A stretch of DNA of 64,000 nucleotides from Vulcanimicrobiota bacterium (GTDB taxonomy: Bacteria > Vulcanimicrobiota > Xenobia > Xenobiales > JADMJV01), in assembly GCA_050250895.1 (NCBI GenBank), contig JBFWNU010000006.1, positions 215,513-279,512 on the forward strand, written 5' to 3'. Both the position numbers and the translations under genes were made by a program. The notes under the pieces are model-generated. The model was not told where the DNA came from and made no database searches. It saw only the letters and a program-made list of their open reading frames with translations. Below are positions 1-20,106 of this stretch, piece after piece. The stretch's first letter is position 1, and each line of letters starts with the position of its first letter.

Positions 1-264
1 GGTGACGCCATCCGCTGGCTGTTCTCGGCTGGCCAGGTGGGCGGGGCCGGCGGGCTTAACAGCACGCTTTTCTATCTGCGCACCACCGGCGAGGGCGACC
101 AACGGGTGCTCGAGGTGGTCGGCGGCGGCTGGGGGCACGGGGTGGGAATGTGCCAGGAGGGCGCGGCCGGCCGGGCTCGAGGAGGTCAGAAATACCCCGA
201 GATTCTGACCCATTACTACCCCGGCACTCGTCTCGAGGGAGCCGCCCCGGCCATCATCCGCTAG
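1..264 (+). CDS. SpoIID/LytB-domain protein, C-terminal part (5' truncated by window)
   Basis: Frame +1 gives GGGWGHGVGMCQEGAAGRARGGQKYPEILTHYYPG, the typical SpoIID/LytB C-terminal motif. Confidence 0.85.
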   Translation, partial: GDAIRWLFSAGQVGGAGGLNSTLFYLRTTGEGDQRVLEVVGGGWGHGVGMCQEGAAGRARGGQKYPEILTHYYPGTRLEGAAPAIIR

Positions 265-343: not shown

Positions 344-706
344 CTAGCTCCCTGGCTGAGTGAGTGTGAAACCACCCTCTATCCGCTTCCGGTCTCTCGA
401 CACATCCACTGCCAGGCCCATTCGAACATACACAAAGGTCAGCGAGTGGGCCGGGGAATGATCTTGGTCAAGAACAACGTCGGGGGCACCGCAAATTTCC
501 TGCAAAGACTGCACGCCATCCTGACTGCTTAGCCCTCCCCGCGGGGTGGACAAACTCAAGCCGTAGATTCCTACCACATGTCCTGCCTCGACATCGAGGG
601 TGATCAGGCAGCCTCCGTTGCCAAAGACAGACGAGAGATCGACCCGCGCGCAGTGACATCATGGCACCCCCAGCCCGTCCATCAGACCATCGGTCGTCAT
701 CCTCAT
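344..706 (-). pseudogene. Small hypothetical gene interrupted by an in-frame TGA (661-659)
   Basis: ATG at 706 reads MRMTTDGLMDGLGVP*CHCARVDLSS... and continues in frame into the 344..577 ORF. Confidence 0.4.
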
Positions 707-729
707 GGGCTCGTTACGCCGGGCTCGGC

Positions 730-1116
730 CTATCTCAGTCTGGCCTTGAGATACTCCAGGTCGGCGCTGGCTTCGGTTAAGGGCAGAACCCGGTTGAGGT
801 AGCTGTCGGCTCGCAAGTCGTCGTTGAGATAGAAGAGCAGTTGTTGGCCTTCCTTAAAGAGCCGGGCCGGATAAGTGGGGCCACCGTGGCCGTCGACCTT
901 GACCTTGCCCTTGAGCTTGCCTTTGTAGAGCTGGTCGACCTGAACGGTGGCCAGCGAAGGATAGCCGTACTTGTCTTTGTTTACCGCCACCACCGTACCC
1001 ACGAAGACCTGCGACGAACGGGCGAAGGCGGCCGGGGCGTCGGCAGGGGGAGTGCCGGTTGGGACTTCGGCCAGGGCGGGGAGCAGCAGGAGTAAGACGA
1101 GCAAGAAGGGTTTCAT
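730..1116 (-). CDS. Secreted hypothetical protein, possible NTR/TIMP-like beta domain
   Basis: Signal peptide MKPFLLVLLLLLPALA; AFARSSQVFVGTVVAV...ATVQVDQLYKG pattern; CAAGCT 6 nt before ATG 1116. Confidence 0.7.
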   Translation of the reverse strand: MKPFLLVLLLLLPALAEVPTGTPPADAPAAFARSSQVFVGTVVAVNKDKYGYPSLATVQVDQLYKGKLKGKVKVDGHGGPTYPARLFKEGQQLLFYLNDDLRADSYLNRVLPLTEASADLEYLKARLR

Positions 1117-1264
1117 TTCCAAAGCTTGGCCGGACCATCGCCATTCCCCTTCGTCGCTGGCCCGCCTAACTAGCCCAACCAGACAGGGCCTCCATTCTGC
1201 TCATCGTCCCTCGCTGCGTCTCGAGAGGACCCCGCGCTTCGCCTTAGCGACCAGCCACCACCCG

Positions 1265-1714
1265 TCAGGTCTTGTTGTAGTTGAAGGTGACCCGGTTGGA
1301 CTTGGTCAGGTAGCGGCCCTCGGTGTAGATGCCCAACTCGAAGGATAGGTCGGTGTTGCCGCTGGCCATGTGCAGCTGGTCGTACGGCATGAAAAGGGTC
1401 AAGTCGTTGAAACGAGCGCTGGGGTAGGCGGGCACGAAGTCGCGATTGATGCTGACGTAGCCGTCGACGTCCTTGTATTGTCCGTCGAAATCCTTCAGGG
1501 CCTGTCCGTTGGCGTAGTAGAAGTGCGAGGTCAGCAGGCAGGGCACGTTGAGGTGGTTGTTGACCGTGAAGCGAGCGTGAATCTTGAGTCCTTTCACGCC
1601 GTTTTCCCAGACGTTGTGTTCCAACCAGACGTTTTCGAAGTTGGCCTGAGGTTGCGCCTGGGCGCCCGCCGCCAGCAGCAGCATCAGGGCAACGAAGATG
1701 AGTTTTCGGTTCAT
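1265..1714 (-). CDS. Secreted hypothetical protein (149 aa, beta-rich)
   Basis: Signal peptide ending AQA; GGAGG RBS; TATACT -10 at 1746-1741. Confidence 0.85.
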   Translation of the reverse strand: MNRKLIFVALMLLLAAGAQAQPQANFENVWLEHNVWENGVKGLKIHARFTVNNHLNVPCLLTSHFYYANGQALKDFDGQYKDVDGYVSINRDFVPAYPSARFNDLTLFMPYDQLHMASGNTDLSFELGIYTEGRYLTKSNRVTFNYNKT

Positions 1715-1740
1715 GATACCCTCCAGATCTCAGTCTCTAG

Positions 1741-1808
1741 AGTATAGCCGGCAACCCGCCGATTCCGCGTCGTTAGCGACAAGCGGCAATCCGCGGGCGA
1801 TGAACGGC
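1741..1808 (-). promoter_or_regulatory. Promoter with LytTR-type direct repeat for the 1265..1714 gene
   Basis: Minus strand: GCCGTTCAT(1808-1800)-N12-GCCGCTTGT(1787-1779)-N32-TATACT(1746-1741). Confidence 0.7.
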
Positions 1809-1809
1809 T

Positions 1810-3744
1810 CTATTTGAGGTCCACCCAGAGAACCTCGCGGGCCACGTAGGCCTGGGGCTCTTTGATGGTAGGCCGGCCAGCACGGGTGCCCTGCATGACA
1901 TTCTCCATCAACTTGCCGAAGGGACCCGCCACGGTGGCCGAAGGGTCCGACGACGAGCGCTGTTTGCCCTGGCTCTCGAGAAAGAGCAGATCGACCTCTT
2001 GCGACGTGCCGATGACTTTGAAGCCTTCTCGACCGCTACCCCCGTCGAAGGCCAGATCGACCGTCAGGGTCTGGCCGGGAGAGACCTTTTTCTGGGCCTC
2101 GATGCCATAGGGATACAGCACCTTGACGCCGCCGTCAGCCAGGAAGTTGAGGACCGAGACATAGAGCGGGGATTGGCTTTTGTTGGTGATCTTGAGCAGT
2201 GCCTCCTGGCCTTTGGCGAAGGCGAACAGACCATTGGGCCCGGCCGTGTGAGACGGGTCGGGCTGGAAGCTCTCGATGCTGCCCGAGAATTTGCCGGGCA
2301 CCATTTCCACCTCGAGGCTCTGCGGCTGGTTGACCATGCGCTGCAGGTAGAGACGACGCGCCTCGCCTTTGAGGGCGCGGTGAATCAAGGCCGGTTCCCT
2401 GGTGGGGGAGAGGATGACCTCACCGGTGGCCCGCTCGAGCCGCAGATTGCCATTGTCGTTCCAGGCCAGCACCTCGGCTCCGGCCCCACGCTCGACTTTC
2501 TTGACCACGGGATCGTTCAGGAGCCCCAGCGCTTCGGCCTGAGGATCGACGAAGACCTCTACGGCCACCTCGCCGAAATTTTGTTCCATGACGAAACCCA
2601 CCGCCGAGCGCAGGTCCTCGAGCGAGGCCGAGCCCTGCAGGGCGGCGTTGGCGCGATAGAGGTCGGTGCCGGTTTCGCCGACCACGGCCTCGCAAAGCTT
2701 CTTGGATTGGTCGTCCGGACTGCGGGTGCCGACTCGATAGAGAGCCACGCGGCTGCCGGGGGTCACTCCCAGCAGCCGACCGCGGTCGAGGATGACCGAT
2801 GTGGGGGTAGCGCTCACCACCGACAGAGTTTCTTGGCGAGGGATGGCTTTGCCGCCTAGCAGCGAGAGCTTGAGATCGCCTTCGCCCATCGGGGTCTGGT
2901 CGTAGAAGAAGGTGTTGGCGCCCACCAGACGCAGCAGGTCGAGATAAGAGGAGTCGGGTCCCAGGCGAGGGTCTTCCAGGCCACTGACCAGGGCGTGCGT
3001 GAAGTCTCCGCCGTGGGTGGGATCTTCTTTGGCGGTCTGATGGGCCTGGCAGGCCGAGAGGACGACCCAACCCTGGCCGCCCGCGGCGTGACGCGAGGCG
3101 GTCAGAGTGGCGTCGCTACGGGCCTGTTGCCGGCAGCTGCCGCCGGTGCGAATTTTCTTGCCCAGGGTGCTGGCCGAGCGACTGATCGTGCCCGAATGGC
3201 AGCTATCAAAGATAAAGACTACCGAGCCCTGCTGGCCGCCCGAGCGAACTTTGGCGATGAGTTGCTGCAAAGCCGTCTCGATAAAGTCGTCGCGCACCAC
3301 GCTGTCGGCGAAGGTCGGGTCGTTGGGGCCGGGGGCATCGATGGGGATGATGCACTCGTCGAGGCCGTCGTCCTCGGGGTCGTTCTTTTCCCAGCTATCA
3401 GCGTTAGGGGGCTCGCGATTGGGAACGGCGCAGCCGTGACCGGCGTAGAAGAAGATGACCGTCTCGCCCGGCTGGGCCTCGGTGACGAGCTTCTTCATGG
3501 CGCCTTCGAGGCCGGCTCGGGTGGCCTGCTCCTGGGTGACGATGGTGAGCTTGGCCGGGTCGGCCTTGAACCGGTCCACGAGCGCCTTCTTGATCTTTTC
3601 GACATCACCCGGAGGACCCTCGAGAGGTTCCCAGGCCCCGGTGTTTTGATAGGCCCCCACTCCGACCATCACAGCCCGGATGTCGGGGCCGTCGGCCCAG
3701 CCCAGGCTGCTGAGCATGAGGGCCAAGAGAAGCAGTTTCTTCAT
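1810..3744 (-). CDS. Secreted caspase-family (peptidase C14) protease with C-terminal DUF4384-like domain
   Basis: Signal peptide MKKLLLLALMLSSLGWA; catalytic FFYAGHG and FDSCHSG; LSACQAHQTAKE; C-terminal LKITNKSQSPLYVSVLNFLADGGVKVLYP; ATG overlaps the CHAT gene stop (ATGA 3744-3741). Confidence 0.9.
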   Translation of the reverse strand: MKKLLLLALMLSSLGWADGPDIRAVMVGVGAYQNTGAWEPLEGPPGDVEKIKKALVDRFKADPAKLTIVTQEQATRAGLEGAMKKLVTEAQPGETVIFFYAGHGCAVPNREPPNADSWEKNDPEDDGLDECIIPIDAPGPNDPTFADSVVRDDFIETALQQLIAKVRSGGQQGSVVFIFDSCHSGTISRSASTLGKKIRTGGSCRQQARSDATLTASRHAAGGQGWVVLSACQAHQTAKEDPTHGGDFTHALVSGLEDPRLGPDSSYLDLLRLVGANTFFYDQTPMGEGDLKLSLLGGKAIPRQETLSVVSATPTSVILDRGRLLGVTPGSRVALYRVGTRSPDDQSKKLCEAVVGETGTDLYRANAALQGSASLEDLRSAVGFVMEQNFGEVAVEVFVDPQAEALGLLNDPVVKKVERGAGAEVLAWNDNGNLRLERATGEVILSPTREPALIHRALKGEARRLYLQRMVNQPQSLEVEMVPGKFSGSIESFQPDPSHTAGPNGLFAFAKGQEALLKITNKSQSPLYVSVLNFLADGGVKVLYPYGIEAQKKVSPGQTLTVDLAFDGGSGREGFKVIGTSQEVDLLFLESQGKQRSSSDPSATVAGPFGKLMENVMQGTRAGRPTIKEPQAYVAREVLWVDLK

Positions 3745-6700
3745 CGCCAGTCTCCTATCATGGTAAAGGCAGCCCAGTGGAAGGGATGCCGGGTTGCGGG
3801 GTCGGCCAGCAGAGCCTGCTGGGCTTCTTGCAGGGCCTGGGCGGGGGACTTCTTGGCCAGCAGGCCGGTGTAGAACTTCTCCATCAGCGAACGAGTCGAG
3901 TCGTCCGAGACCTTCCACAGGCTGGCCACCACGGTTGGGCAACCGGCAAAGCCGAAGGCATCGGCCAGGCTGGTCAATTCGGAAGTGTCCTGGGCCGACT
4001 CGCCCAGAGCGGTCTCACAGGCCGACAGGGACACCAGCCGGGTCTGGTCGAGTTGCAGACCGGCGATGTCGCTGATGGCCAGCTTTTGCTGGTTGGCCAG
4101 CACCAGAAAGCTCGAGTTGGGGTCACGAGCATTGAGCACACCGTGAGTAGCCAGGTGGATATATTCGTTGTCGGCGAGTGATTGTAGCCGATCCAGGGTG
4201 GCTTCACCGCCCAGCAGCACCGTGGCTTCGGGAAACTGCCGGCCGATGCTTTTGGCTTCTTCGGCCGCGGCTGGTAGCGAGCCGTCGGGATTGCCGATCG
4301 CGAACAGACGGCGGTTGCCGGTCGGGATGGCCGAGGCCAGGTGCTCGAGGTCACTCGACTTGAGCAGACTCACCACTTGCTTGCGTTCGATGAGAAACTC
4401 GAGCCGGTCGTCTTTGAGGCGGGCCACGCAACTCAGCGGCAGAGTCATCAGGCTGCCCGAGGGGATGAAGGCCAGCACTTTCTTGTCGGCGATGTCTGGC
4501 TCGACCGGGTCGATCAATAGCTTGTGCAGGTGCAGCAAGGCCTCTTCCAAGCCTTCGACCGGATTGGAAGGGGCCTGGGCCACGGCCCGACCGGCCCGCA
4601 CCATCTGGCTAGCCTGGGTGGCCAACAGAGCCCGCCGGGTTTGCTTGACCAGGCTGTCCAGTTCGTTGCGGCTGACGGCAACCTGCCGAATCTTGAGTGA
4701 TTCTCGGGTCAGTACGAACAAATAGAGCGAGTCTTTGGTCGGCAGGGTCTGCAGCACGACCGCATCGGCCGGAACCTGGGATTGAATGCGGGCGAAGTTG
4801 ACCGGTCGAATCGACAAGAACTGGCCATAACCGGGATGCTGGCGCCGGATTTCGCCCAGGGCGGTGTAGAATTCTTGGCGATTGGCGGCTACCAGGCCTT
4901 CGGCCTTTTTGCCGCCCCGGGTTTGTTCGCTTTGCAGCGCCTGGCCCCGATCGCGCAGTTCGTCGAGGGCGCGCGTCGCCGAGCGCAGCTTGGGATCCGA
5001 CTGAGCCAGGGCCTCGGCCTGGCCGCTCATCAAGCTCTCGGCCTGGCCCAGGCGGGCCAGGGTCTCGAAGGCTTCTGGCTGTTTGCCGGCCTCGAGCAAC
5101 AGCTCGGCCTGAAGCTCATAGGCCCGGCGAAAGCGCTGGCGCAGATGAGCTGAGCCGCCGGCCTCGGTGAGGTAGTCCTCGACCAGGGTGACGGCTCGCT
5201 GACATGCCTTGAGGGCTCGTTCTTTTTGGCCCAGGGCCCGATCGACCTCGGCCAGTCGGATCAAAGCCACGATGATGCCGGGGCGATGATGGTGGGACTC
5301 GCTCTCTTTGAGAAGGGTCGCCGCCGTCGGGCGGGCGAGCTTTGCCCAGCCGGCCGGCTGTTTGGCGGCGAGCCGTTCCAGCTGGGTGAAGCGAGCGTCC
5401 TCCAGTCCCAGGTAGCCGACTCCAGAACGGGCGTCGTTCTGATAGACGAGCGCTTCTTCCAGGGCTTGCTCGTCATCTTCCAGTTGGGCCTTCTCGAGCT
5501 TGTAGAGGGCCACCACCCGAGCCACGTCACCCTGGGTCCAGGGGAACTCGTTGGGACTGCCCATATTGGCCAGTTGATAGGCCAGACCGGTCTCGCGAAT
5601 GGCTTGCCAGGTGGCCTCGACCGGGGCAGCCAGCTCGCGCAGCAGAAGCAGCGCCTCGGCTTTGCGACCCTGCAACCGCCAGGTGCGCACGACTTGCAGC
5701 TCGAGGGCCTGGCTGGCCAACAAGAACTCGGGGTTCCAGACCCTGACGAAGGTGGCCAGGTCGGTCGGGTGCAGGCTCATGTCCATCTGCCCGGCCGCCA
5801 GGCGACGCAGGCGGCGCAGGTCTTCCCACACCACATAGTAGAGCTGGGCGTAGACCGGGAATTCGTTGGTCTCCGACGACATCTGGCGCAGCGCCGCGCT
5901 AATCCAGACGCTGGCCCCTTCACCAACCCAGCGGCCCAGACCGCCCTCGAGCGGTTGGCGCTCGAGGTTGTCGAGCTTGGACCAGGTAGCAGTGTGGCGG
6001 GCTAGCCATTGAGCTGGCGGCAAGTCGGGATTCTTCTGCAGTTCGCGTTCCAGGGCCAGGCTTTCGACCACGAATCCCTCCAGGGGGGCGGTCGGAAGTT
6101 GGGCCAGAGCGACTAGTTGGCGGTCGAGCACTTCGGGTCGTTCGGCTTTGTGGGCGGCAGTCGCCACGGCCAGTCTCACGAAGACCTCATCGCGGGGGGA
6201 GAGACCGGTCACCATTGTTTCGCCGCGCTCGATGGCTTCATCCCAGAGTCCGCCGCCTTCGAGGGCAACCAGTTCGAGCTTGGCCACCTGGAGGGGGTCG
6301 TGGGACTCGGCCTTCAACCGGGCGAGCAGGCCAGGCAAATAGGTCTGGTTGCCCACCCGAATGGCCAGGGTGGCGGCCGCCAGGCCCTGTTGCGCCGGCG
6401 GAGCGGCGGGCTGAGCCGGCATGACCGTGGCCATCGTTCCTCGGGTATCGATCGCCTCGTCCGCTTCGAACAGGGTGCCCCGCCAGCGGGTCACGGCCCA
6501 AAGCATACCCTTCTCCTTTAGCAACTGCTCGGGTTCGCCATAGCCTTCCATGCGAAAGGCCCGGGCGATGGTGTTGAGCCACTCGACCCGGTCGGGCTGC
6601 TGGGCCAGCACCTGGTCAAAGGCGGGGCGGGCCACCTCGGGATAGAGGCGAACCCCCTGCACGATCTTGATCAATTCGCCTGCTTGGCGCCACTGTTCGG

Positions 6701-6797
6701 TGCGGTTGAGGAACGTCTCGACATCGACCGGCTGGGCCCAGAGCGGGGCGGTGAGCAGCATCAGCCAGACGGCCAGAGCTTTCGGGATAGAAATCAT
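3741..6797 (-). CDS. Secreted CHAT-domain protease with helical/TPR-like region
   Basis: Signal peptide MISIPKALAVWLMLLTAPLWA; CHAT motifs YIHLATHG, VSLSACETALG, VVASLWKVSD, HPFHWAAF. Confidence 0.9.
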   Translation of the reverse strand: MISIPKALAVWLMLLTAPLWAQPVDVETFLNRTEQWRQAGELIKIVQGVRLYPEVARPAFDQVLAQQPDRVEWLNTIARAFRMEGYGEPEQLLKEKGMLWAVTRWRGTLFEADEAIDTRGTMATVMPAQPAAPPAQQGLAAATLAIRVGNQTYLPGLLARLKAESHDPLQVAKLELVALEGGGLWDEAIERGETMVTGLSPRDEVFVRLAVATAAHKAERPEVLDRQLVALAQLPTAPLEGFVVESLALERELQKNPDLPPAQWLARHTATWSKLDNLERQPLEGGLGRWVGEGASVWISAALRQMSSETNEFPVYAQLYYVVWEDLRRLRRLAAGQMDMSLHPTDLATFVRVWNPEFLLASQALELQVVRTWRLQGRKAEALLLLRELAAPVEATWQAIRETGLAYQLANMGSPNEFPWTQGDVARVVALYKLEKAQLEDDEQALEEALVYQNDARSGVGYLGLEDARFTQLERLAAKQPAGWAKLARPTAATLLKESESHHHRPGIIVALIRLAEVDRALGQKERALKACQRAVTLVEDYLTEAGGSAHLRQRFRRAYELQAELLLEAGKQPEAFETLARLGQAESLMSGQAEALAQSDPKLRSATRALDELRDRGQALQSEQTRGGKKAEGLVAANRQEFYTALGEIRRQHPGYGQFLSIRPVNFARIQSQVPADAVVLQTLPTKDSLYLFVLTRESLKIRQVAVSRNELDSLVKQTRRALLATQASQMVRAGRAVAQAPSNPVEGLEEALLHLHKLLIDPVEPDIADKKVLAFIPSGSLMTLPLSCVARLKDDRLEFLIERKQVVSLLKSSDLEHLASAIPTGNRRLFAIGNPDGSLPAAAEEAKSIGRQFPEATVLLGGEATLDRLQSLADNEYIHLATHGVLNARDPNSSFLVLANQQKLAISDIAGLQLDQTRLVSLSACETALGESAQDTSELTSLADAFGFAGCPTVVASLWKVSDDSTRSLMEKFYTGLLAKKSPAQALQEAQQALLADPATRHPFHWAAFTMIGDWR

Positions 6798-6856
6798 GAC
6801 CCGTCTTCTCCCAATTCGGAAAGGGGCGTTCGAAAGGGCGGCCTTTGGATCCTGGC

Positions 6857-7588
6857 TCACCATCCGGTAGCCTCCTTAAACCCTGGCACGAAGCGTCTCG
6901 AGAGGGGCACCTGAGAACCGTCTTCCAACACCAGGGTGTAGGAACCCGAAAACCACGAATTGACCTCGCGGATCTTCTGAAGGTTGACCAAAAAGGCTTT
7001 GTGGATTCTCAGAAAGCCGTGCTCGGCCAGCCGCTCTTCGAGCTCTTTGAGAGTGTGCCGGACCCGCAGGGGTGGGTGTTCCTGGGTGTGTAGATAGACC
7101 TTCTTCTCGCGAGCCTGGACCGACTGCAGTTGGGAGTAGTCGAGCAGAATCCAGCGTTCTTCGGCGGCCTCGCCCCAGAGCTTGGTGGCCTGCTGATGCC
7201 AGAGAAGCTTGCCCACGGACTCGTGCTGGTTGACCGGAATCTTGAGCCGGGCGACGGTCTGGGCTAGCCGGTCCTCGCGAAAAGGCTTGACCACATAGTC
7301 GACGGCGCTCAGCCGGAAGGCTTCGGCGGCGTGCTCGGAATAGGCCGTCGCAAAGACGATGCGCGGGGCCCCGCCGCGCTCGAGCAGGCGGGCGGCCACG
7401 GTCAGGCCGTCGTCACCCGGCATGTTGATGTCGAGGAACACTACGTCGAAGCTGTCGTTGGCCGTGCGCTCGAGCACATCGATTCCGTTTTCGGCCTCGG
7501 CAAATTCGGCGCTGGGCAGTAGCTCGTTGAGCATGTAGCGCAGTTCCTGGCGGGCAGGTCTCTCATCGTCGGCGATCAGGATCTTCAT
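6857..7588 (-). CDS. LytTR-family response regulator (REC + LytTR)
   Basis: ILIADDE, VFLDINMPG, VFATAY, DYVVKP; LytTR FLRIHKAFLVN...VPLSRR; ATGA overlap with the upstream kinase. Confidence 0.95.
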   Translation of the reverse strand: MKILIADDERPARQELRYMLNELLPSAEFAEAENGIDVLERTANDSFDVVFLDINMPGDDGLTVAARLLERGGAPRIVFATAYSEHAAEAFRLSAVDYVVKPFREDRLAQTVARLKIPVNQHESVGKLLWHQQATKLWGEAAEERWILLDYSQLQSVQAREKKVYLHTQEHPPLRVRHTLKELEERLAEHGFLRIHKAFLVNLQKIREVNSWFSGSYTLVLEDGSQVPLSRRFVPGFKEATGW

Positions 7589-8184
7589 GGCGTCAGTTTC
7601 CATTCATAGCTGGTGGTCTCGCCCCGGCCGCAGGTCAAACCGGCCACCTGATGTGAGAGTTGGGCGGGGGCGCCATCGGCTTCGATGAGCAGCCGTCCGG
7701 GTTCCAGCGTGAGCAAGATGGTTCCACCCTGGGCGCGAGCGGCCAGTTCGCGGACTACACCACGCAGCAGCGCGCCGATCACCCTGGCCTCGACGATGCC
7801 ATCCAGGCCTCGTTCATCGATGCGCTCGATGACCTCGAGGCGTTCGCCCAAACGGGCTTGCTCCAGGCGCAGATAGGCTCGAGCGGCCTCGATCTCTTCG
7901 CGCAGGCGCGCTTCGGTCTCGCTACCGAGGGCCGATTGGAGAACGGTAGACAGGTCGAGCAGAAGCTCTCGGGCCATCGCAGGCTCGGTGCGCACGAAAT
8001 AGCGCACCGTGTTGATGGCGTTAAACAGAAAGTGGGGGTTGAGTTGGTGGCGCAGTTGGTCGGCCTGGACCTGCACTCGGTCGAGTTCGGTTCGCAATAG
8101 TTGCTCTCGTTGAAGAGCCGCTTTGGTAGAGCCTTTCCATTTTAGGTAAAGGGCCACGACCAGGCCCAGCAGGATCCAGTTCAC
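7585..8184 (-). CDS. LytS/YehU-type histidine kinase homolog with degenerate ATP-binding domain
   Basis: One N-terminal TM; H-box QLNPHFLFNAIN and EEI..ARAYLRLEQARLGERL retained; no ENAxKH, DxGxG or GxGL boxes. Confidence 0.85.
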   Translation of the reverse strand: MNWILLGLVVALYLKWKGSTKAALQREQLLRTELDRVQVQADQLRHQLNPHFLFNAINTVRYFVRTEPAMARELLLDLSTVLQSALGSETEARLREEIEAARAYLRLEQARLGERLEVIERIDERGLDGIVEARVIGALLRGVVRELAARAQGGTILLTLEPGRLLIEADGAPAQLSHQVAGLTCGRGETTSYEWKLTP

Positions 8185-8191
8185 AGGCCCT

Positions 8192-8332
8192 ATTTTGTCA
8201 TATTCGCGCGCCTTCCCGCCTGCTCGCACGATAAGTGGTCGAATCCGCCCGACAAGCGGTCGCGGCCCCTCGTCGGGGGTTCGTGACCGCTTGTCGGGAC
8301 TCGAGGGCAGAACCGGTTACAGGTGCTAGGAT
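8192..8332. promoter_or_regulatory. Divergent promoters, each with a LytTR-type 9-12-9 direct repeat
   Basis: Minus: ACCGCTTGT(8260-8252)-N12-ACCACTTAT(8239-8231)-N33-CAAAAT(8197-8192). Plus: GCCCCTCGT(8265-8273)-N12-ACCGCTTGT(8286-8294)-N32-TAGGAT(8327-8332). Confidence 0.75.
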
Positions 8333-8350
8333 GAGGCCCGGGGAGGAGCG

Positions 8351-8677
8351 ATGCGCAAGTTTGCCGTGGTGATGATCTTGATGGGGTGCTTGACCGCGCT
8401 GGGTTGGTCGCGCCAGGTCAGCGTCTGGCGCTCTTCTTCGGGCTCGACCGTCAAGCTCGACGGAACCGAAAAGGAACAGTTCGCGGTGATCATGGTCGGG
8501 CCGGACGGAAGTCGTCGGGTCTTTCCCGGGCAGTGGGTCGAGGTCAGGAATTCGTTCACCTATTTCGTGGCCGGTCGGAGCCACTATTGCACCTTTTCGA
8601 GAGGCGGCTATTCCATCCAGGTCCGCAGCCCGGTAGGCAGCGACGAATGGAGTTTCGTGGGTTGGGAATCTCGCTAG
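8351..8677 (+). CDS. Small secreted hypothetical protein (108 aa)
   Basis: GGAGGAG RBS; signal peptide MRKFAVVMILMGCLTALG; beta-strand-like mature part. Confidence 0.75.
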   Translation: MRKFAVVMILMGCLTALGWSRQVSVWRSSSGSTVKLDGTEKEQFAVIMVGPDGSRRVFPGQWVEVRNSFTYFVAGRSHYCTFSRGGYSIQVRSPVGSDEWSFVGWESR

Positions 8678-8704
8678 AAGGATTCGAGGGAATGCCGCGC
8701 TGGA

Positions 8705-11383
8705 TTGACGAAAGCCGCGAGCGACTTGAAAGGGCACTCGGTCAATACGCTGGCCTTTCTGCTGGGGGCGGTTCTGGTGCTGGTCGTGGTGGCCGACTAT
8801 CGCGCCTCGCTGCTCCAGGCGCGCCAGAATTTCTGGAACGAGAGTCACAACCTGGCCCGGGGCGACAGCCAGAGAATGCGCCAGTCGTTGGGTTGGATCA
8901 CCGCCACCCTCGACCTGGTGAAAAGCGATCAGATCCTCTCCACCTTCGTAGCCGCCGACGTTGCCCTTCCGCGTTCGAGTCGGGCTCGGGTCGAGCCGGC
9001 CTTTCGCTTGTTGGCTCAGCGAGCCGATGTGGTCAGCCTGCAGTTGCTCAGCAACTCGGGGCCCAAGCCTCGCGTCTTGATGAGCTTCGAGACGGGCACC
9101 GACCAGCCCGCCGAGGTCGGGCAGGCCGAGACTCGACTGGCAGGGTTGGCCGAACTCTTCAAGGCGAACCAGGCACCTTATCTAGTCAGCCCAACGTTGC
9201 CCATGGCCAGTAGGCGGCAGGCTTTCTACTATGCGGCCCCGCTTTATCATCGAGAGTTGCCTCTGGGCATGGTAACCTGCCTGGTCCTTTCCCAGGAGTT
9301 GCGCCGGGGGACCTCGCCCCAATTCGACCGCGTCCGCGAGGTTCGCTCGGGGCTGCTCATCGAGAGCGTGCCGCCCGCTCGCGAGGCTGGCAGCTATTAT
9401 CACGAAGTGCTCGACCTGGGGCAGGGTTGGAAGCTCGAAGAGAGCCGCCCCGACAGCGACTATTGGGCTCGTCACGACGTCAGGAGCGCTCATCGCTCGT
9501 TAGCCCTGGGGCTGACCGCCGTGGTGTTGGCTATGTTGGCCGCCTGGAGTTTGGCGCTGCGCCGTTCGGCCCAGGCCGCCAGCCGGGCCAAGAGCGAATT
9601 CATGGCTAGCGTGAGTCATGAGATCCGGACCCCGCTCAATGGAATTCTGGGCATGACCAACCTGGCCCTCAAGACCCGCTTGAGCGTGGTGCAGAGCGAG
9701 TATCTGCGCACCGCCTCTTCGTCGGCCGAGTCGGTGCTCGGTCTGATCAACGATATCCTCGACTTTGCCAAGATCGAGGCCGGAGCGCTCGATATCTCGC
9801 CCATTCCCGTCGAGCTTCGCCAGTTACTGCACCAGGCACTCAAAACGCTGGCGCACAAGGCCGCCGAAAAGGAGGTCGAACTGGTGCTCTGGGTCGACCC
9901 GCGCGTGCCGCGCCGGGTATTGGCCGACCCTGTGCGCCTGCGTCAAGTCGTGTTGAATTTGGTTTCGAACGCGGTCAAGTTCACGGCCGAAGGAGAGATC
10001 CTGGTCAAAGTCCGACCACGCCTGGACAAGCTGCACTTTTCGGTCCGAGACACCGGCATCGGCATCGCCGCCGACCGCCAGCGGGCCATCTTCGAGCTTT
10101 TCACCCAGGCCGATTCTACCACCACCCGTCGCTACGGAGGGACCGGCCTGGGTCTATCGATCAGTCGCGAGCTGGTCGGTCGAATGGGGGGCGAGATCTG
10201 GGTCGAGAGCGAGCCCGAGCGCGGCAGCGTGTTTCATTTTACGGCCGACCTTTCCACGCTCGAGCCCATGCCCGAACCGGCGGATTTCAAGGGCCGGCAG
10301 GCCCTCGTGGTCGAGCCCAATCCTACCGCGCGGGGCCTGCTCGAGATGTTGCTTTCCGAGTGGAATTTTCGGGTCGAATCGTTGAGTGAAGCCGAAGTCT
10401 ACGAGCGGGTTCGTCCGGGGGCAGTGGTGCTGATTCCCGCCGCCCGGGTCGAGGATTTTCGTCAACTCCAGGGGGTGAGGCTGATCGGTTTGGCTTCGCG
10501 CACGGAAGAGCTCGAGGTGGAAGGGGCCGATGCGGTGGTGGCCAAGCCGATTCTGCCCAGCGAGCTGTTGGCCCGCCTGGCCGGTGAGGAACCGTCCCAG
10601 ACGCGATTGACTACCCTGCCGAGCCTGAAGTTGTTGCTGGCTGACGATAGCCCCATCAATCGCAAGATTGGCACCCTGATGCTCGAAGAGCAGGGCCATT
10701 CGGTGGTGGTGGCGCGGGACGGGGCCGAGGCGGTCGAACTGGCTCTGGGCGATGCCTATGACCTGATTCTGATGGACATGCAGATGCCCGGAGTCGACGG
10801 ATTGGAGGCCTGTCGCCAGTTGCGCCGGCGGGGCTCGAAGGTACCCATCATCGCCCTCACCGGCAACGCTCTGCGCGAAGACCAGAAGCGTTGTCTCGAG
10901 GCTGGCATGAACGGGCACGTGGTCAAGCCCATCGACGAGCGTCGCCTGAATCTGGCCATGGAGCGGGTTTTGACCGGCCGAAAGCTGGCCGCGCCCCGGG
11001 TGCCCGGGGATCGCCGGTCTTCTCGGCCCTGGGACGGCCGGGTGTTTCGCGCCGACGTGAGCCTGGAGCGGGTGGGCGGCGACCCGCGGAACCTGAACAC
11101 CGTGATGGTGATGTTTCTCGAACTCGCCGACCAGCATGTCGAGGCCGTTCGAGGCGCCCTCAAGGCGTGTGACCCGGAGGGTTTATCCCTGGCCGTCCAC
11201 GCGCTCAAAGGCACCGTGGCGGCCTTTGACGCGCTGGCCGTGGTGCGCGTGCTCAGACGCCTGAGCGAGCGCGCCCGGGCGGGGGTGGCCGAGCCCCACG
11301 ATCCCCTCCTGGAAGAACTCGAACTAGAAGTAGAGAAGCTAAAGGACGCCTTTCGGCAGTTTATTTCGGAGCCCGAAAAATGA
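8705..11383 (+). CDS. Hybrid sensor histidine kinase (TM sensor, HisKA, HATPase, two REC, Hpt)
   Basis: SHEIRTPLNG, NLVSNAVKFT, DTGIG, GGTGLGL, LILMDMQMP, Hpt AVHALKG; exact start uncertain. Confidence 0.95.
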   Translation: MTKAASDLKGHSVNTLAFLLGAVLVLVVVADYRASLLQARQNFWNESHNLARGDSQRMRQSLGWITATLDLVKSDQILSTFVAADVALPRSSRARVEPAFRLLAQRADVVSLQLLSNSGPKPRVLMSFETGTDQPAEVGQAETRLAGLAELFKANQAPYLVSPTLPMASRRQAFYYAAPLYHRELPLGMVTCLVLSQELRRGTSPQFDRVREVRSGLLIESVPPAREAGSYYHEVLDLGQGWKLEESRPDSDYWARHDVRSAHRSLALGLTAVVLAMLAAWSLALRRSAQAASRAKSEFMASVSHEIRTPLNGILGMTNLALKTRLSVVQSEYLRTASSSAESVLGLINDILDFAKIEAGALDISPIPVELRQLLHQALKTLAHKAAEKEVELVLWVDPRVPRRVLADPVRLRQVVLNLVSNAVKFTAEGEILVKVRPRLDKLHFSVRDTGIGIAADRQRAIFELFTQADSTTTRRYGGTGLGLSISRELVGRMGGEIWVESEPERGSVFHFTADLSTLEPMPEPADFKGRQALVVEPNPTARGLLEMLLSEWNFRVESLSEAEVYERVRPGAVVLIPAARVEDFRQLQGVRLIGLASRTEELEVEGADAVVAKPILPSELLARLAGEEPSQTRLTTLPSLKLLLADDSPINRKIGTLMLEEQGHSVVVARDGAEAVELALGDAYDLILMDMQMPGVDGLEACRQLRRRGSKVPIIALTGNALREDQKRCLEAGMNGHVVKPIDERRLNLAMERVLTGRKLAAPRVPGDRRSSRPWDGRVFRADVSLERVGGDPRNLNTVMVMFLELADQHVEAVRGALKACDPEGLSLAVHALKGTVAAFDALAVVRVLRRLSERARAGVAEPHDPLLEELELEVEKLKDAFRQFISEPEK

Positions 11384-11961
11384 AGAAGATAGCGATTCTA
11401 TTGGTTTTGCTCTGTGCCCTGGCCCAGGCCGACGATGATTGGCGCCGGGGCAAGGCGCTCTCGCGTCAAGACGCCGAGCAGCTGCATGCCTTTCTCCTCT
11501 CGGGAGAACTGCTGGACTTCGCCCATCGCTGTGGGTCGGCTCGCTCCTACCTGCTGGCCGCCCAATTGCGTCTGGATTATCCCACCAAACCGTTCGAGCC
11601 GGGGCCTGTGCTTGAACTATGTCGCCAGGCGCGGGCGGTCATGGGTGACGACAGTCTGGCTCGGGGTTGGGCCGAGGAACTCGAGAATCGGGCCCGCAAG
11701 CACCCTCGAGGCGCGGCCGGTCCCCTCGAGGCTCGCGAAGGGGAGCTGCCGGCCGGCGGGTCCCTGACGCTGGCGGCTCAGTGGATGGCTGTCCGCGGCG
11801 ACGGGAACTTTCAGCTCGAGCGTCTAGACCCCGCGGGAAAGGTGTTGGAGCGCACAGCGATCGGCGGAGAACTGTTTCTCACCACCGAGCCGGGTCAGCG
11901 AATTCGCCTGGTCAATCGCGGCGAAGGTGCCGGGTACTGGTTGCTGTGGCGGGGTCCCTAA
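11380..11961 (+). CDS. Secreted hypothetical protein (helical N-part, RGAxG linker, beta-sandwich-like C-part)
   Basis: Signal peptide ending AQA; ATGA overlap with the kinase; KHPRGAAGP...VRGDG. Confidence 0.7.
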   Translation: MKKIAILLVLLCALAQADDDWRRGKALSRQDAEQLHAFLLSGELLDFAHRCGSARSYLLAAQLRLDYPTKPFEPGPVLELCRQARAVMGDDSLARGWAEELENRARKHPRGAAGPLEAREGELPAGGSLTLAAQWMAVRGDGNFQLERLDPAGKVLERTAIGGELFLTTEPGQRIRLVNRGEGAGYWLLWRGP

Positions 11962-14026: not shown

Positions 14027-15747
14027 ACGAGTTCGGCTCCGGCCTCGGCGATGGCCCCCCAGTTCTGGTCGGGTCGGGCCAGGATGCGCACTTTCAGTTG
14101 GCCCGAGGCGATGGCCTGGGCAAAACCGGGAAGGCGCTCCGAGGTGTAGGCGTGGCTGCCGGTTCGGCGCAGGGCCGGCGCGCCGGGCATGAACACGAAG
14201 GCTTGGCGAGCATCCACCTCGAGTTCGGGCAGTTTGCGTTCCAGCGCCAGGCCAGCCGCCCACACCACCAGGTGCCACTGGTGGCGCAGCCAGTTGCGGT
14301 TCTGGATGGTCAGTTTGAGTTGGCGCGGAAAGTAGCGCAGCCCCTGCTGGGCTCGATTCTGGGCCCACTGGTCGAAGGTCGCTTTGAGGCGGCTGGTGAG
14401 ACGGTGAAAATCGTGGTAGACGCGATCAGGGCGCTGATGGGTCTGATGGCAACCGTACGGGTGAGGCAGGTTGGGATCGTAGGTCTGATTGTGAATGCGC
14501 TCACGGCTGTGAAACGAACTGCGGGTGAAGGCCAGGTAGTCGTCAAAGGTCTTGCGCGTCACCACCATGCCGTATTTGTCGGGGTCCCGGTCCATCAGAG
14601 CGCCGGGCTCGATCGAGAGGGGCGTCACGGCCAGTTCGCCGATGGCCGGTCCGAAAGTGCTGAGTAGATGGCCGATCCAGGCCTCCGCTTCGAGCACGTG
14701 CTGGGGCTCTTCAGTAGGTAGACCGAGAATGCCGTACAGGCCGGCGTCGAGGTTGGGATGCGAGGCGATGGCGGCCAGGACTTCTTCGAAGGCCGAATTG
14801 GGGGCATAGGGCTTTAGCTGGCGACGCTCGGCCAGCCGCTGGCGAACTTCCTGGCTCAAGGACTGGGCGTCGAGCGAAATAAAAGCGCTGGCGAAACGGT
14901 CCGCCAGAAAGTGCACGAACTCGACTTCGGGCAGTGACCAGAAATAGAAGGCCACGTGGTAGCGACCTCGAGGCAGTTGCTCGAAGAGCTGGCGGTAATA
15001 GTCGCCTTTGCCCGGGTCGGCGATGGGGTCGAAGTCGAACAGGTAGGTCCCTTTCGACCACGGTTCGAGCACCTGCATGTCGTGGAGCACATCGTCGAAG
15101 GGTCGATAGAGATACCCTTTGCGGCCAAACATTCGCTTGTGGCCCAGAGCGCTGCCGGCGCAGAACATGCAGGTACAGCGGCAGCCCTTGCCGGTCCAGA
15201 TGAAGGGAGCGTTAAAACCGATCATCTCGAGCACGTCAGGGTCGGCGAGGGCGGTCAGGTCGTCGGCCAGACGCAGGTTTTGGCCGTCATCGTTTTGCTG
15301 GACATAGGTGGTGGGCAGCACTGCTTCGGCGCTGGTCAGGTTGCAGCTGGGGGCTCCCAGAGCATAATCGAGCAACGGTTTCTCTCCATCACCCCGGACT
15401 ACGGCGTCGAACTGGGTTCGGGCCACCAGTTCGGGAGCGAACGAGGTGGCCGTCTGGCCGCCGCTCACCAGCCGGGCCGGGGGGTGGTAGCGCCGCACCA
15501 ACCGGGCCACCTCGGTGGCTCCATAGAGGGTATCCCACCATTTGCAACTGACGGCCACCGTGTCGGGCCGATAGTCCTCGAGTACCTGGATCATCTTGTC
15601 GATCCAGTAGGGGCCGTCGAGAGGCTCGGTGCGAGCCTCGACCCCCCCTCGTTGCAAGAAGCTCGCCAGGGTCAGGGTGGCGTTGTTGAACAACGTCTGA
15701 GCTCCATCGGCTCGGCGAGGAGGGTTAAAGAACATGACTTTGGCCAC
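14017..15747 (-). CDS. Cobalamin-binding radical SAM protein
   Basis: N-terminal B12-binding-like region (KVMFFNPP, SGGQTAT, VVRGDGE); GKGCRCTCMFC = CxxxCxxC; ILGLPTE. Confidence 0.85.
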   Translation of the reverse strand: MAKVMFFNPPRRADGAQTLFNNATLTLASFLQRGGVEARTEPLDGPYWIDKMIQVLEDYRPDTVAVSCKWWDTLYGATEVARLVRRYHPPARLVSGGQTATSFAPELVARTQFDAVVRGDGEKPLLDYALGAPSCNLTSAEAVLPTTYVQQNDDGQNLRLADDLTALADPDVLEMIGFNAPFIWTGKGCRCTCMFCAGSALGHKRMFGRKGYLYRPFDDVLHDMQVLEPWSKGTYLFDFDPIADPGKGDYYRQLFEQLPRGRYHVAFYFWSLPEVEFVHFLADRFASAFISLDAQSLSQEVRQRLAERRQLKPYAPNSAFEEVLAAIASHPNLDAGLYGILGLPTEEPQHVLEAEAWIGHLLSTFGPAIGELAVTPLSIEPGALMDRDPDKYGMVVTRKTFDDYLAFTRSSFHSRERIHNQTYDPNLPHPYGCHQTHQRPDRVYHDFHRLTSRLKATFDQWAQNRAQQGLRYFPRQLKLTIQNRNWLRHQWHLVVWAAGLALERKLPELEVDARQAFVFMPGAPALRRTGSHAYTSERLPGFAQAIASGQLKVRILARPDQNWGAIAEAGAELVYD

Positions 15748-15816
15748 GCCCCAATGTAACACACCGAGGGGGAAAAAATCACGGCGAGCGGCAGCCGGTT
15801 CGGTTACGATCAGGCC

Positions 15817-16386
15817 ATGAACAAACCGATCGTCGTGATGCTGTGGGGAGCCCCCGCCTCTGGAAAGACTACTATCGCCGCCGGATTACGGCCGCGGCTC
15901 GAGCAAGAGTACGGGCTGCCCGTCTGCCATCTGAGCCCCGACACCCTCAACCAGGCCATCGTCGGAGACCGCTTCCTGGCCTCGATTCGCGAGGCACTCT
16001 ACCAGGGCGCCATGGCCATGCTCGAGGCGATGCTCAACAGCCAGCACCTGGTTTTGCTCGACGGCACCTTTCTCTCGAGAGACCTGCGCCAGCGCGTGGC
16101 CGGCCTGGCCAGGGAGCGGGGAGCCACGCTGGTGTCGGTCCATATCACTTGCTCGTATCCGTCGCGGGCGGCCCGCAATGCCGGCCGGCCCGACAGCGCG
16201 CGGGTGCGAGCGGAATGGATGCGCAAGGCCCACTATCAGGCGCTGGCCGCCCGGGCCGAGGCCGATCTCGTCATCGACACCGAGCGGTGCCCGGCCCCCG
16301 AGGCCGTCGAATCGGTGTTGAACTATCTGGTTCACCGGCTGGAGTTGAATGAAGGGGTTTATCAAGGAAGTTGGGTTCTCGTATAA
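15817..16386 (+). CDS. P-loop kinase (AAA_33/adenylylsulfate-kinase-like)
   Basis: GAPASGKT Walker A; VLLDGTF; ARNAGR lid; DLVIDT. Confidence 0.85.
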   Translation: MNKPIVVMLWGAPASGKTTIAAGLRPRLEQEYGLPVCHLSPDTLNQAIVGDRFLASIREALYQGAMAMLEAMLNSQHLVLLDGTFLSRDLRQRVAGLARERGATLVSVHITCSYPSRAARNAGRPDSARVRAEWMRKAHYQALAARAEADLVIDTERCPAPEAVESVLNYLVHRLELNEGVYQGSWVLV

Positions 16387-16393
16387 TGGGTGG

Positions 16394-16927
16394 ATGGAGA
16401 TCGAGCGCCAGGAAGGTTGGCCGCGCCAGTTCGCAATTTTGTTGTTGCTCCTGAGCCTTGGCGCTATCCCGCTCACGGCTTGGAAGGTCGGCCTCGACGG
16501 TGTCTGGCCGGGATGGTGGGGGGCGGCCCTGACCCTCAGTCTGCCCTTGCTGATGTGGCGCCGCGGCGTTCGCATCGACCCCCAGGCTCGTTTGTTGTGG
16601 CCCTGGTGGGGATTGAGGTGTCCCGGTCTGGGTCTTTGGAAGTTTCGCGAAGGAGAGTCGCGAAGCACGGCCGGCTTCGAACACGTCGAGGTCGAGGCCC
16701 TCGACCGCGGAGAGCACTATAAGAACAAGCCCATGGCGCGGGTTTTGCTGGGATGCGCCGGGCATCCTCTCCAGCGAGAGATTGTCGACGACGAGTATGC
16801 CGACATCGAGGCGGCCAGGCGTTGCGCCGAGCGGGTTTCTCAATGCCTGGGGTTGGAGCTACAGGGCTTTTGCCCACCGGAGAGAATCGGGTGCGATGGC
16901 CACGGGCAAGACGCAGACAGCCGCTAA
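16394..16927 (+). CDS. Membrane hypothetical protein (2 TM)
   Basis: Two hydrophobic segments; TATAAT 6 nt upstream of ATG 16394. Confidence 0.65.
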   Translation: MEIERQEGWPRQFAILLLLLSLGAIPLTAWKVGLDGVWPGWWGAALTLSLPLLMWRRGVRIDPQARLLWPWWGLRCPGLGLWKFREGESRSTAGFEHVEVEALDRGEHYKNKPMARVLLGCAGHPLQREIVDDEYADIEAARRCAERVSQCLGLELQGFCPPERIGCDGHGQDADSR

Positions 16928-19952: not shown

Positions 19953-20106
19953 GCTCGCTCAAGCCCGCCGAACAGCCGGACGATCAGGCCTCGAGCGGTT
20001 TCCAGCCGGCGGCTTCGAGCACACAAAGAGCGTCGGGGGTGACGAACCGGAAAACTTTCACCAGTCCGCTGAGGTTCTTCATCGTCAAATCTCTCATGGC
20101 TCGACT

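Follow-up and report, generated by a model that had tools for sequence, protein, structure and literature searches.

The DNA analysed here, referred to as the window, is a stretch of 64,000 nucleotides from contig JBFWNU010000006.1 of a Vulcanimicrobiota bacterium, and near its left end it carries two protease genes, which we call chat and casp, together with the genes of signalling proteins and of several small proteins of secreted type. Coordinates refer to the window unless another locus or contig is named; the genome itself (G000 in our sample) has 9.5 Mb and is GC-rich. On the minus strand five genes follow each other in a single direction within 1265–8677: kin (7585–8184, longest open reading frame (ORF) to 8229), rr (6857–7588, longest ORF to 7603), chat (3741–6863), casp (1810–3744), and sp149 (1265–1714). 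Divergently from kin the plus strand carries sp108 (8351–8677), hybHK (8705–11383), and sp193 (11380–11961). Both kin and rr as well as chat and casp are joined by ATGA overlaps at 7588–7585 and 3744–3741, as a preliminary description of this DNA had stated; hybHK and sp193 also overlap through ATGA, and the stop codon of rr overlaps the long start of chat (6863) through ATGGTGA. A Pfam domain scan of the nine proteins encoded at 730–11961 bears out the four co-oriented genes of that description, a kinase, a LytTR regulator, a CHAT protease, and a caspase, on the minus strand. The unit is however bigger than had been stated, as it extends over 1265–11961 and includes the divergent operon of the hybrid kinase.

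The first protease gene, chat, codes for 1,018–1,040 amino acids depending on the start, which is either at 6863, where an AAGGAGG ribosome site is found, or at 6797. The CHAT domain (PF12770) comprises the residues 776–1038 (E 2e-65, 221.5 bits). It contains the motifs HLATHG at 903 and LSACE at 946, which align with the catalytic His/Cys region of Csx29 in a phmmer search of the PDB, and this dyad is invariant in 4/4 rows of CHAT orthologues. In the 731 residues of the N-terminal region only a single TPR_2 match was found (E 0.0079, 16.7 bits with a cut-off of 27), and Pfam detected no TPR in the same region of two orthologues.

The second protease, casp, has 644 amino acids and is a metacaspase-like (orthocaspase) protein of exported type with a Peptidase_C14 domain (PF00656) at residues 23–275 (E 5.5e-22, 79 bits with a cut-off of 21.4), followed by C-terminal beta domains, one of which is DUF4384-like. 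Of the earlier name caspase/DUF4384 protease the first half holds; DUF4384 (PF14326) stays below its cut-off with 24.7 bits against 27 (E 2.6e-5, profile positions 8–53 of 81) and reaches E ≤ 0.001 in 13 of 33 members of the subfamily. It is the one profile of those named previously that fell short, with CHAT, Peptidase_C14, His_kinase, and LytTR all above cut-off. The protein was aligned in sets of seven and of 33 rows. Peptidase_C14 is found in all 33 relatives, and H103 and C182 of the motifs YAGHG at 100 and DSCH at 180 are invariant in 33/33 rows; the phmmer search places YAGHG and DSCHSG opposite SGHG and DSCHSG in Arabidopsis metacaspase 4. Thus, the dyads of both proteases are intact as described. 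The AlphaFold2 model of casp (mean predicted local distance difference test score, pLDDT, 76.6) has the caspase–hemoglobinase fold, and with Foldseek its best matches are metacaspase 9, the Candida and yeast metacaspases (Yca1), and GSU0716 with E values of about 1e-11 to 1e-10. Directly behind Cys182 the model shows a disordered linker (residues 183–221, pLDDT < 50) which is rich in Arg and Lys and contains an arginine, R189, that is invariant in all 33 rows. Zymogens of the caspase family are processed in the segment that matches the one behind the catalytic cysteine, and going by the model the linker of casp may be zymogen-like. Orthocaspases are described as cleaving after basic residues (PMC6426788).

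To judge the conservation casp was searched in 41 related genomes. Full-length orthologues with 58–62% identity are present in four of them (G001, G003, G009, and G014), and in all four chat lies directly upstream; more distant full-length relatives were found in G008 and G040. In addition, a scan with one genome per species yielded 79 loci of C14 relatives with 1.25 Mb of sequence from Acidobacteriota, Gemmatimonadota, Chloroflexota, Armatimonadota, Planctomycetota, Verrucomicrobiota, Cyanobacteria, and Gammaproteobacteria. When these loci were searched with a hidden Markov model built from the 10 CHAT domains of the own genome, CHAT was found within 10 kb in 39 of the 79 and in 34 of the 74 outside the family. 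This corresponds to a roughly 36-fold enrichment around C14 relatives, namely 53 ORF matches in 1.25 Mb compared with 11 in the 9.5 Mb of the own genome, in which CHAT is found at 11 loci and C14 at 4. The region of ∼730 amino acids which precedes the CHAT domain of chat is lineage-specific and present in 5/79 loci, namely four family loci and, as a weak match, one locus of Chthonomonadaceae (L087). The conserved neighborhood supports the view that chat and casp form a unit. As to the previously proposed gene combination as a whole, the CHAT–C14 pair recurs in the four relatives and in the 39 loci, whereas the link to kin and rr is found in only 3 of the 41 genomes. In these three (G000, G009, and G014) the short kin with rr always stands beside chat and casp; the other matches to kin among the 41 genomes sit in frames of 503–998 amino acids. 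In G009 and G014 kin and rr are followed by co-oriented genes for a leucine-rich-repeat protein and a pilin-like protein (L031 7807–9138; L029 1912–3182), and chat–casp runs towards them. The gene hybHK is divergent from kin–rr in G009 also and partly in G014, and in G009 it is adjoined by an orthologue of sp193 (46% identical).

Some further observations were made in these relatives. The leucine-rich-repeat protein of G009 and G014 has 281–286 amino acids (LRR_8, E 2e-30) and the pilin-like gene codes for an N_methyl motif; both genes are missing from the window. A second CHAT paralogue of 966 amino acids with a signal-like N-terminus and a 49% identical CHAT domain is encoded in G009 (L031 104–823, the same as L045 14651–17548), ∼7 kb away from the chat–casp pair of this genome. 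In G008 (L033 2706–11371) a distant C14 relative with 33% identity stands beside a CHASE2–guanylate cyclase, a secreted-type protein of 300 amino acids, and a TPR-CHAT protein of 1,384 amino acids with a signal-like N-terminus; there the same kind of protease pair is embedded in another signalling context.

The N-termini were assessed by visual inspection and from their hydropathy. Those of chat, casp, sp149, sp108, sp193, and the protein of an ORF at 730–1122 start with a short charged segment, which is followed by a hydrophobic core and a motif of small residues. With a stroke at the predicted cleavage site the sequences are MKKLLLLALMLSSLGWA/DG for casp, ...AVWLMLLTAPLWA/QP for chat, and ...LLLAAGAQA/QP for sp149; sp108 begins with MRKFAVVMILMGCLTALGW. 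The signal-like N-termini of chat and casp with their AXA-type ends are kept in the orthologues that could be read while the residues themselves have diverged, which argues against a chance hydrophobic stretch, and the C14 domain of casp begins directly after the predicted cleavage site. These N-termini agree with the Sec-type signal peptides that had been ascribed to both proteases, and export of chat and casp appears plausible. A Tat signal on chat was considered because of the RRR ahead of the hydrophobic stretch when the start at 6863 is used, and was dropped as the orthologues in G001 and G009 show short Sec-like N-termini. Among the 79 C14 relatives 27 have a hydrophobic N-terminus, and in seven loci outside the family (L049, L071, L087, L090, L092, L100, and L103) both the C14 relative and the nearby CHAT protein have one. 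The pairing of CHAT with C14 is thus general, and its doubly exported form would be a recurrent minority.

The product of kin is a protein of 199 amino acids in the public gene call (P0154, from GTG at 8184) and of 199–214 amino acids over the range of the ORF. It is predicted to cross the membrane once, by a single hydrophobic segment close to the N-terminus, and carries the phospho-acceptor motif NPHFLFN. The only Pfam match is His_kinase (PF06580, E 4.4e-20); HATPase_c and the multi-pass membrane sensor of the LytS type are absent, so that the term LytS-type kinase used before is valid for the His_kinase domain and not for these other two parts. When aligned to the PDB entry 6swj kin ends at about residue 160 of the 218 of the chain, which leaves the catalytic domain incomplete by ∼60 residues, and it is similarly short in comparison with the paralogue-type kinase of G001 with 531 amino acids. 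At the N box it has R-G in place of E-N, and the N-box Asn is also absent from the orthologues in G009 and G014. Of the ATPase domain kin has kept a truncated remnant in which this Asn is missing. Among the 120 best relatives of kin there are at least about 20 short proteins, all metagenomic, of 191–226 amino acids with PF06580 only (including P0155–P0173 and P0176), and since these are equally short the short kin is a conserved type and not a broken gene. The contigs that carry some of them reach lengths of 1.1 Mb.

The regulator rr has the domains Response_reg (E 3.5e-23) and LytTR (E 7.9e-26); the best NCBIfam models are LytR and BtsR, both under their equivalog cut-offs. In the whole genome rr is the sole gene with LytTR and kin the sole gene with PF06580. 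The hybrid sensor kinase hybHK has the order HisKA–HATPase_c–REC–Hpt, and its best NCBIfam match is BarA-like. As it ends with an Hpt domain we consider it a candidate phosphodonor for rr.

Which DNA sequence might be recognized by rr is suggested by repeats in the intergenic regions. The exact 10-mer CCGCTTGTCG occurs three times in the window, at 1777–1786 (−), 8250–8259 (−), and 8287–8296 (+), and all three copies are intergenic. These are 3 of the 19 copies in the genome, and it is this clustering at the locus and not the number which is unusual. In the putative promoter and operator of sp149 (1741–1810, minus strand) the 10-mer (1786–1777) is followed after 30 nt by the −10-like hexamer TATACT (1746–1741), and upstream of sp108 it stands 30 nt ahead of the hexamer TAGGAT, with identical spacing. 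Read on the plus strand, the site of sp149 is GACAAGCGGCAA; its partner GATGAACGGCTC, 21 nt further on, is weak. The divergent control region between kin and sp108 (8230–8296) contains direct repeats on both strands, GATAAGTGGTCG (8230) and GACAAGCGGTCG (8251) on the plus strand and GACAAGCGGTCA (8296) and GACGAGGGGCCG (8275) on the minus strand, in each case 21 nt apart; jointly the two pairs make up a 25-nt inverted repeat (I2). LytTR operators consist of paired imperfect direct repeats about two helical turns apart; pairs with this spacing are also present in G009 and G014. Within the genome the spacer between kin and sp108 holds the two best motif pairs at a spacing of 20–22 nt; for this comparison only the tightest pairs were used, as looser settings for the two motifs of a pair (≤2 and ≤4 mismatches) swamped the genome scan with period-three coding noise.

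The degenerate form of the motif, GAYAANCGGTC, has 21 exact copies in the genome. It is present upstream of kin in all three genomes with the short kin, exact in G014 and with one mismatch in G009. Upstream of chat it is found in exact form in G009 at a distance of ∼85 nt with a 7-of-11 partner 21 nt further on, and with one mismatch in G001; in G003 there is no site at ≤1 mismatch. In G009 and G001 the motif thus precedes chat although chat and the regulator do not share a transcript there, and its presence in these two rearranged relatives supports a control by LytTR, which we regard as plausible. Such a control is in line with the sole LytTR gene and with the motif ahead of kin in 3/3 genomes; the four-gene operon described earlier exists in the own genome only. 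The operator that the two small proteins were said to share with the operon is seen as a 10-mer upstream of both; the partner at sp149 is weak and the copies are differently oriented. Taken together, the sites support one regulator acting on kin–rr–chat–casp, on sp108–hybHK–sp193, and on sp149. A further exact motif at 44930 of the window was taken as a chance occurrence, because it is inside an ORF of 269 amino acids and has no good partner. The 19 other exact copies of the motif all lie under long open frames, which does not discriminate in a GC-rich genome.

The small protein sp149 (149 amino acids, secreted-type) consists of one domain that has no match in Pfam or NCBIfam, belongs to unnamed clusters only in the protein atlas, and gave near-identical proteins only in a word-indexed search. 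With HMMER, however, 1,712 representative proteins were found at E ≤ 0.001 among 1.84 billion representatives. The domain of ∼125 amino acids has the consensus VWVDHNV...KGMRIH...LFMPYDELH and often occurs in 2–4 tandem copies (proteins P0003–P0151); it is a candidate new domain family. AlphaFold2 predicts a confident beta-sandwich (pLDDT 94.9) with a folded domain of 129 amino acids. Foldseek gave no match of this model in the PDB at E ≤ 0.001, and VIA-align gave Z values of about 10 to GH2 Ig-like domains and to the carbohydrate-binding domain of Wzt, a generic similarity from which no specific function can be read. A Pfam scan of 120 of the best 150 relatives revealed a protease domain in 23 (C14 in 4, CHAT in 1, Trypsin_2 in 5, S8 in 7, C1 in 2, M48 in 2, and astacin/M10 in 2), TIR_2 in 5, a Ser/Thr kinase in 5, and BACON, PEGA, or Sel1 in several. 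In the own genome sp149 is the sole copy of its domain. By these partners sp149 would be a module for binding outside the cytoplasm that is often found together with proteases, which fits its place just after casp, and as other bacteria fuse this module to such proteases a role as accessory for binding or targeting is likelier than that of a substrate. For sp108 (108 amino acids, secreted or lipoprotein-type, family unassigned) the word-indexed search retrieved the protein itself, one metagenomic relative with 82% identity, and nothing else; sp193 has 193 amino acids and is of secreted type. The roles as substrates, inhibitors, or signals that had been assigned to sp149 and sp108 are guesses; the two proteins are not conserved with the module, and sp149 is a folded domain of binding type and not an obvious substrate or signal.

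Several published systems resemble parts of this locus. In the type III-B CRISPR locus of Haliangium ochraceum SAVED-CHAT cleaves and activates PCaspase, a protease of broad specificity which is inhibited by the small neighboring protein PCi (10.1101/2023.06.23.546230). There as here the CHAT gene adjoins the gene of a C14-type caspase, and CHAT, caspase, and small inhibitor represent the three-part logic that the preliminary description had assumed for our locus. As described there, that system is cytoplasmic, triggered by cyclic triadenylate via SAVED, and embedded in a CRISPR/CBASS context, whereas chat and casp have signal-like N-termini, are apparently controlled at the level of transcription, and include extra beta domains on the C14 protein. 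Among the scanned proteins Pfam found no SAVED domain, in chat or elsewhere, and no CRISPR/CBASS context, the neighbors being signalling and secreted proteins; the SAVED_CHAT model of PADLOC matches the catalytic core of chat only (residues 896–1033, E 6e-4), and at the level of systems PADLOC had no match at the locus.

The circuit layout resembles that of Fsr of Enterococcus faecalis, where the LytTR regulator FsrA controls gelE–sprE and ef1097, the latter coding for a small Sec-exported pre-protein that is trimmed by gelatinase (PMC5454873). Fsr has a self-regulating LytTR regulator next to the operon of its two secreted proteases, and a small exported protein, encoded separately, with the same LytTR site; the locus described here would share these features. 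The Fsr proteases are a metalloprotease and a serine protease, and the signal is a cyclic peptide processed by AgrB and sensed by an AgrC-type kinase; here the sensor side is a hybrid kinase together with an ATPase-less His_kinase protein, and no AgrB, AgrD, or C39 genes were found among the nine scanned proteins. The third system is DdvA, a periplasmic TPR-CHAT protein serving in signalling (PMC11506125). It shares with chat a CHAT domain with a His–Cys dyad behind a large N-terminal region, and the helical nature of this region, the extracytoplasmic location, and the link to signal transduction reported for DdvA may also apply to chat; DdvA differs as it is membrane-anchored and has a cytoplasmic zinc anti-sigma domain and an extracytoplasmic function (ECF) sigma factor as partner. 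In contrast, chat is predicted to be soluble behind its signal peptide and is paired with C14, and Pfam found neither a membrane anchor nor a zinc anti-sigma domain in it nor an ECF sigma factor among the nine proteins at 730–11961. DdvA was also not retrieved at E ≤ 0.01 when chat was searched against the PDB with phmmer.

With regard to the kinase, AlgZ(FimS)/AlgR and LytS/LytR are comparable in that a PF06580 protein is encoded just upstream of a REC–LytTR regulator. The description of AlgZ of Pseudomonas states that no G1, F, and G2 boxes of the ATP lid are recognizable (PMC4064291). It has retained, however, an N-box Asn as well as a multi-pass sensor domain, and kin has neither, with one membrane segment and ∼199 amino acids. 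With orthocaspases and metacaspases (PMC7475262, PMC6426788, 10.1101/2022.08.17.504292) casp shares the p20-type dyad and the DxCHSG motif, and its C-terminal domain that matches DUF4384 below the cut-off may be a further common feature. For cyanobacteria, pseudo-orthocaspases with an export of the Tat-like kind have been proposed (PMC6426788); unlike these as described, casp has an intact dyad, a Sec-like N-terminus, and a translational coupling to the exported-type chat. The earlier claim of a novel system is thus too strong, since a CHAT-to-caspase cascade (10.1101/2023.06.23.546230), a periplasmic TPR-CHAT protein (PMC11506125), and a LytTR regulon with two proteases (PMC5454873) have been published. 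In the literature searched, which did not extend to subscription journals, no report on a gene pair of an exported CHAT and an exported C14 protease or on its control by LytTR was found. What sets the locus apart is its lineage, that a CHAT and a C14 protease, both of exported type, are combined, and that a kinase partner devoid of ATPase occurs together with a hybrid kinase; the layout of the circuit is familiar.

We suggest, with moderate confidence, that the locus represents a regulon under the control of a signal, with a pair of caspase-fold cysteine proteases acting outside the cytoplasm as its output. In this regulon rr would probably be phosphorylated through the Hpt domain of hybHK, and kin, lacking the ATPase, would serve as a partner or phosphatase and not as an autokinase. 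The regulator would bind the GAYAANCGGTC-type repeats with 21-nt spacing in 8230–8296 and the related site before sp149, as the conservation of the motif suggests, and would thereby drive the three units kin–rr–chat–casp, sp108–hybHK–sp193, and sp149. The proteases chat and casp would be exported via their N-terminal signal peptides and act jointly outside the cytoplasm. By analogy to known cascades, one of them would most likely process the other at the disordered basic linker of casp, which would set free an Arg/Lys-specific protease. As free-standing copy of a beta-sandwich module that is elsewhere fused to proteases, sp149 may be an accessory for binding or targeting.

Bacterial caspase-fold proteases, both CHAT proteins and orthocaspases, have been studied almost wholly as cytoplasmic enzymes of defence or cell death. 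Here, two catalytically intact proteases of this fold are apparently exported together under a signal-responsive regulator, and pairs in which both proteins bear a signal-like N-terminus occur in at least seven loci of other phyla. If the cascade works outside the cytoplasm, the published principle of CHAT-to-caspase activation would reach a compartment and serve a purpose that are new to it. Only tentatively we go a step further and propose that pairs of CHAT and C14 of the DUF4384 type are a general bacterial initiator–executioner cascade with cytoplasmic and extracytoplasmic versions, and that in the version described here chat cuts the zymogen linker of casp outside the cytoplasm and the system is auto-induced through a phosphorelay ending on rr, a LytTR regulator with a kinase of its own that no longer has the ATPase. 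If true, a caspase-type cascade would be a regulated secreted function and not cell suicide. With two proteases, one regulator, and one operator the locus would then be a tractable case; by-products of the analysis are a widespread unnamed beta-sandwich domain on protease, TIR, and kinase proteins and a family of short ATPase-less His_kinase proteins.

A number of observations weigh against the proposed regulon. In G009 and G014 kin–rr is convergent with chat–casp, so the four-gene operon form is unique to the own genome. G001 has kept chat–casp and has two LytTR regulators which are only 37–39% identical to rr and located elsewhere, and in G003, which is 92% complete and has also kept the pair, no LytTR was found. 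The relatives are close kin, and the co-occurrences therefore represent few independent events. The 19 genome copies of the 10-mer compare with 22 and 44 copies of a control pattern, and with one mismatch 9 matches are found in the window where 8.5 are expected. The partner of the sp149 site is weak with 5/11 mismatches, the motif copies differ in their orientation relative to their genes, and a scan of 600–9000 for consensus promoters of the sigma-70 type gave 0 promoters. Because of the close kinship of the genomes, the mixed orientation of the motif, and a binding deduced from the motif, the evidence for the regulon is weaker than it appears. As to the small proteins, none of the 79 loci of C14 relatives contains the domain of sp149, and neither sp149 nor sp108 has a counterpart at the related loci. 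With regard to the proteases, the direction of any cascade between chat and casp rests on analogy, and their N-termini could instead be membrane anchors. In addition, 52 of the 79 C14 relatives are without a hydrophobic N-terminus and 27 of these 52 still have a CHAT neighbor; many such CHAT-linked relatives are probably cytoplasmic, and the pairing of CHAT with C14 alone is therefore uninformative on the location.

Part of these observations would be explained if chat and casp were an independent housekeeping or nutrient-scavenging pair, the LytTR neighborhood merely inherited synteny within one family, and the motif the site of another regulator or a structural palindrome, an explanation that we consider unlikely while taking it seriously. 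It accounts for the persistence of the pair in G001 with distant LytTR regulators only and in G003 with no LytTR found, for the varying orientation of regulator and pair between the genomes, and for the frequency of the 10-mer at chance level; moreover, the motif forms the 25-nt inverted repeat I2, unlike the classical direct repeats of LytTR operators. On the other hand, within each arm the repeats are also arranged as direct pairs with 21-nt spacing, short kin–rr adjoins chat–casp in each of the three genomes that have kin–rr, and the motif tracks the upstream region of chat, exact in G009, with one mismatch in G001, and with no site found in G003, in which no LytTR was found either.

It is also conceivable, if quite improbable, that chat is the input and not the output of the system, namely that it senses or processes a protein outside the cytoplasm such as sp193, sp108, or the periplasmic domain of hybHK, and thereby gates the phosphorelay, with C14 as a second step or as substrate. 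The periplasmic TPR-CHAT protein DdvA as described acts in signalling (PMC11506125), the large lineage-specific N-terminal region of chat suits a sensor or scaffold, kin lacks an ATPase domain and has hardly any sensor on the outside, and secreted small proteins flank hybHK. Opposed to this are the predicted solubility of chat, which is not tethered to the membrane, the absence of an anti-sigma domain in chat and of a sigma-factor domain among the nine scanned proteins, and the occurrence of the pair without this two-component system in G001, G003, and other phyla.

That chat and casp are not exported at all, due to miscalled starts or inward-facing anchors, and form a cytoplasmic module of cell death or defence like SAVED-CHAT/PCaspase or caspase–gasdermin would agree with the cytoplasmic location of most characterised CHAT and C14 systems (10.1101/2023.06.23.546230), with the 52 relatives mentioned above, and with the match of the generic caspase model of PADLOC (E 5.3e-20), but it is very improbable in view of the AXA-ending N-termini kept on both proteins, the start of the C14 domain right at the predicted cleavage site, the lack of SAVED, NTPase, gasdermin, or CRISPR genes at 730–11961 in the Pfam scan, and the PADLOC matches on chat, which are weak and limited to the catalytic core (E 7e-5 and 6e-4).

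Some minor features remain to be mentioned besides the regulon. A terminator scan of 600–9000 gave 10 terminator-like sites compared with 6.8 expected, none of them informative. The ORF at 730–1122 on the minus strand, directly downstream of sp149, codes for 130 amino acids with a signal-like N-terminus and belongs to no family, and there is no copy of the motif upstream of it. At the left border of the window an open-ended ORF (1–264, plus strand), ending with ...GGGWGHGVGMCQEGA..., may code for a SpoIID/LytB-like protein; its fragment of 87 amino acids had no Pfam match at E ≤ 0.001. Finally, one of the pairs in the loose motif scan matched four times on another contig of the genome (C12, ∼15471–20493) at exact intervals of 1,674 nt, and the tandem repeat suspected there is probably part of a repetitive large gene.

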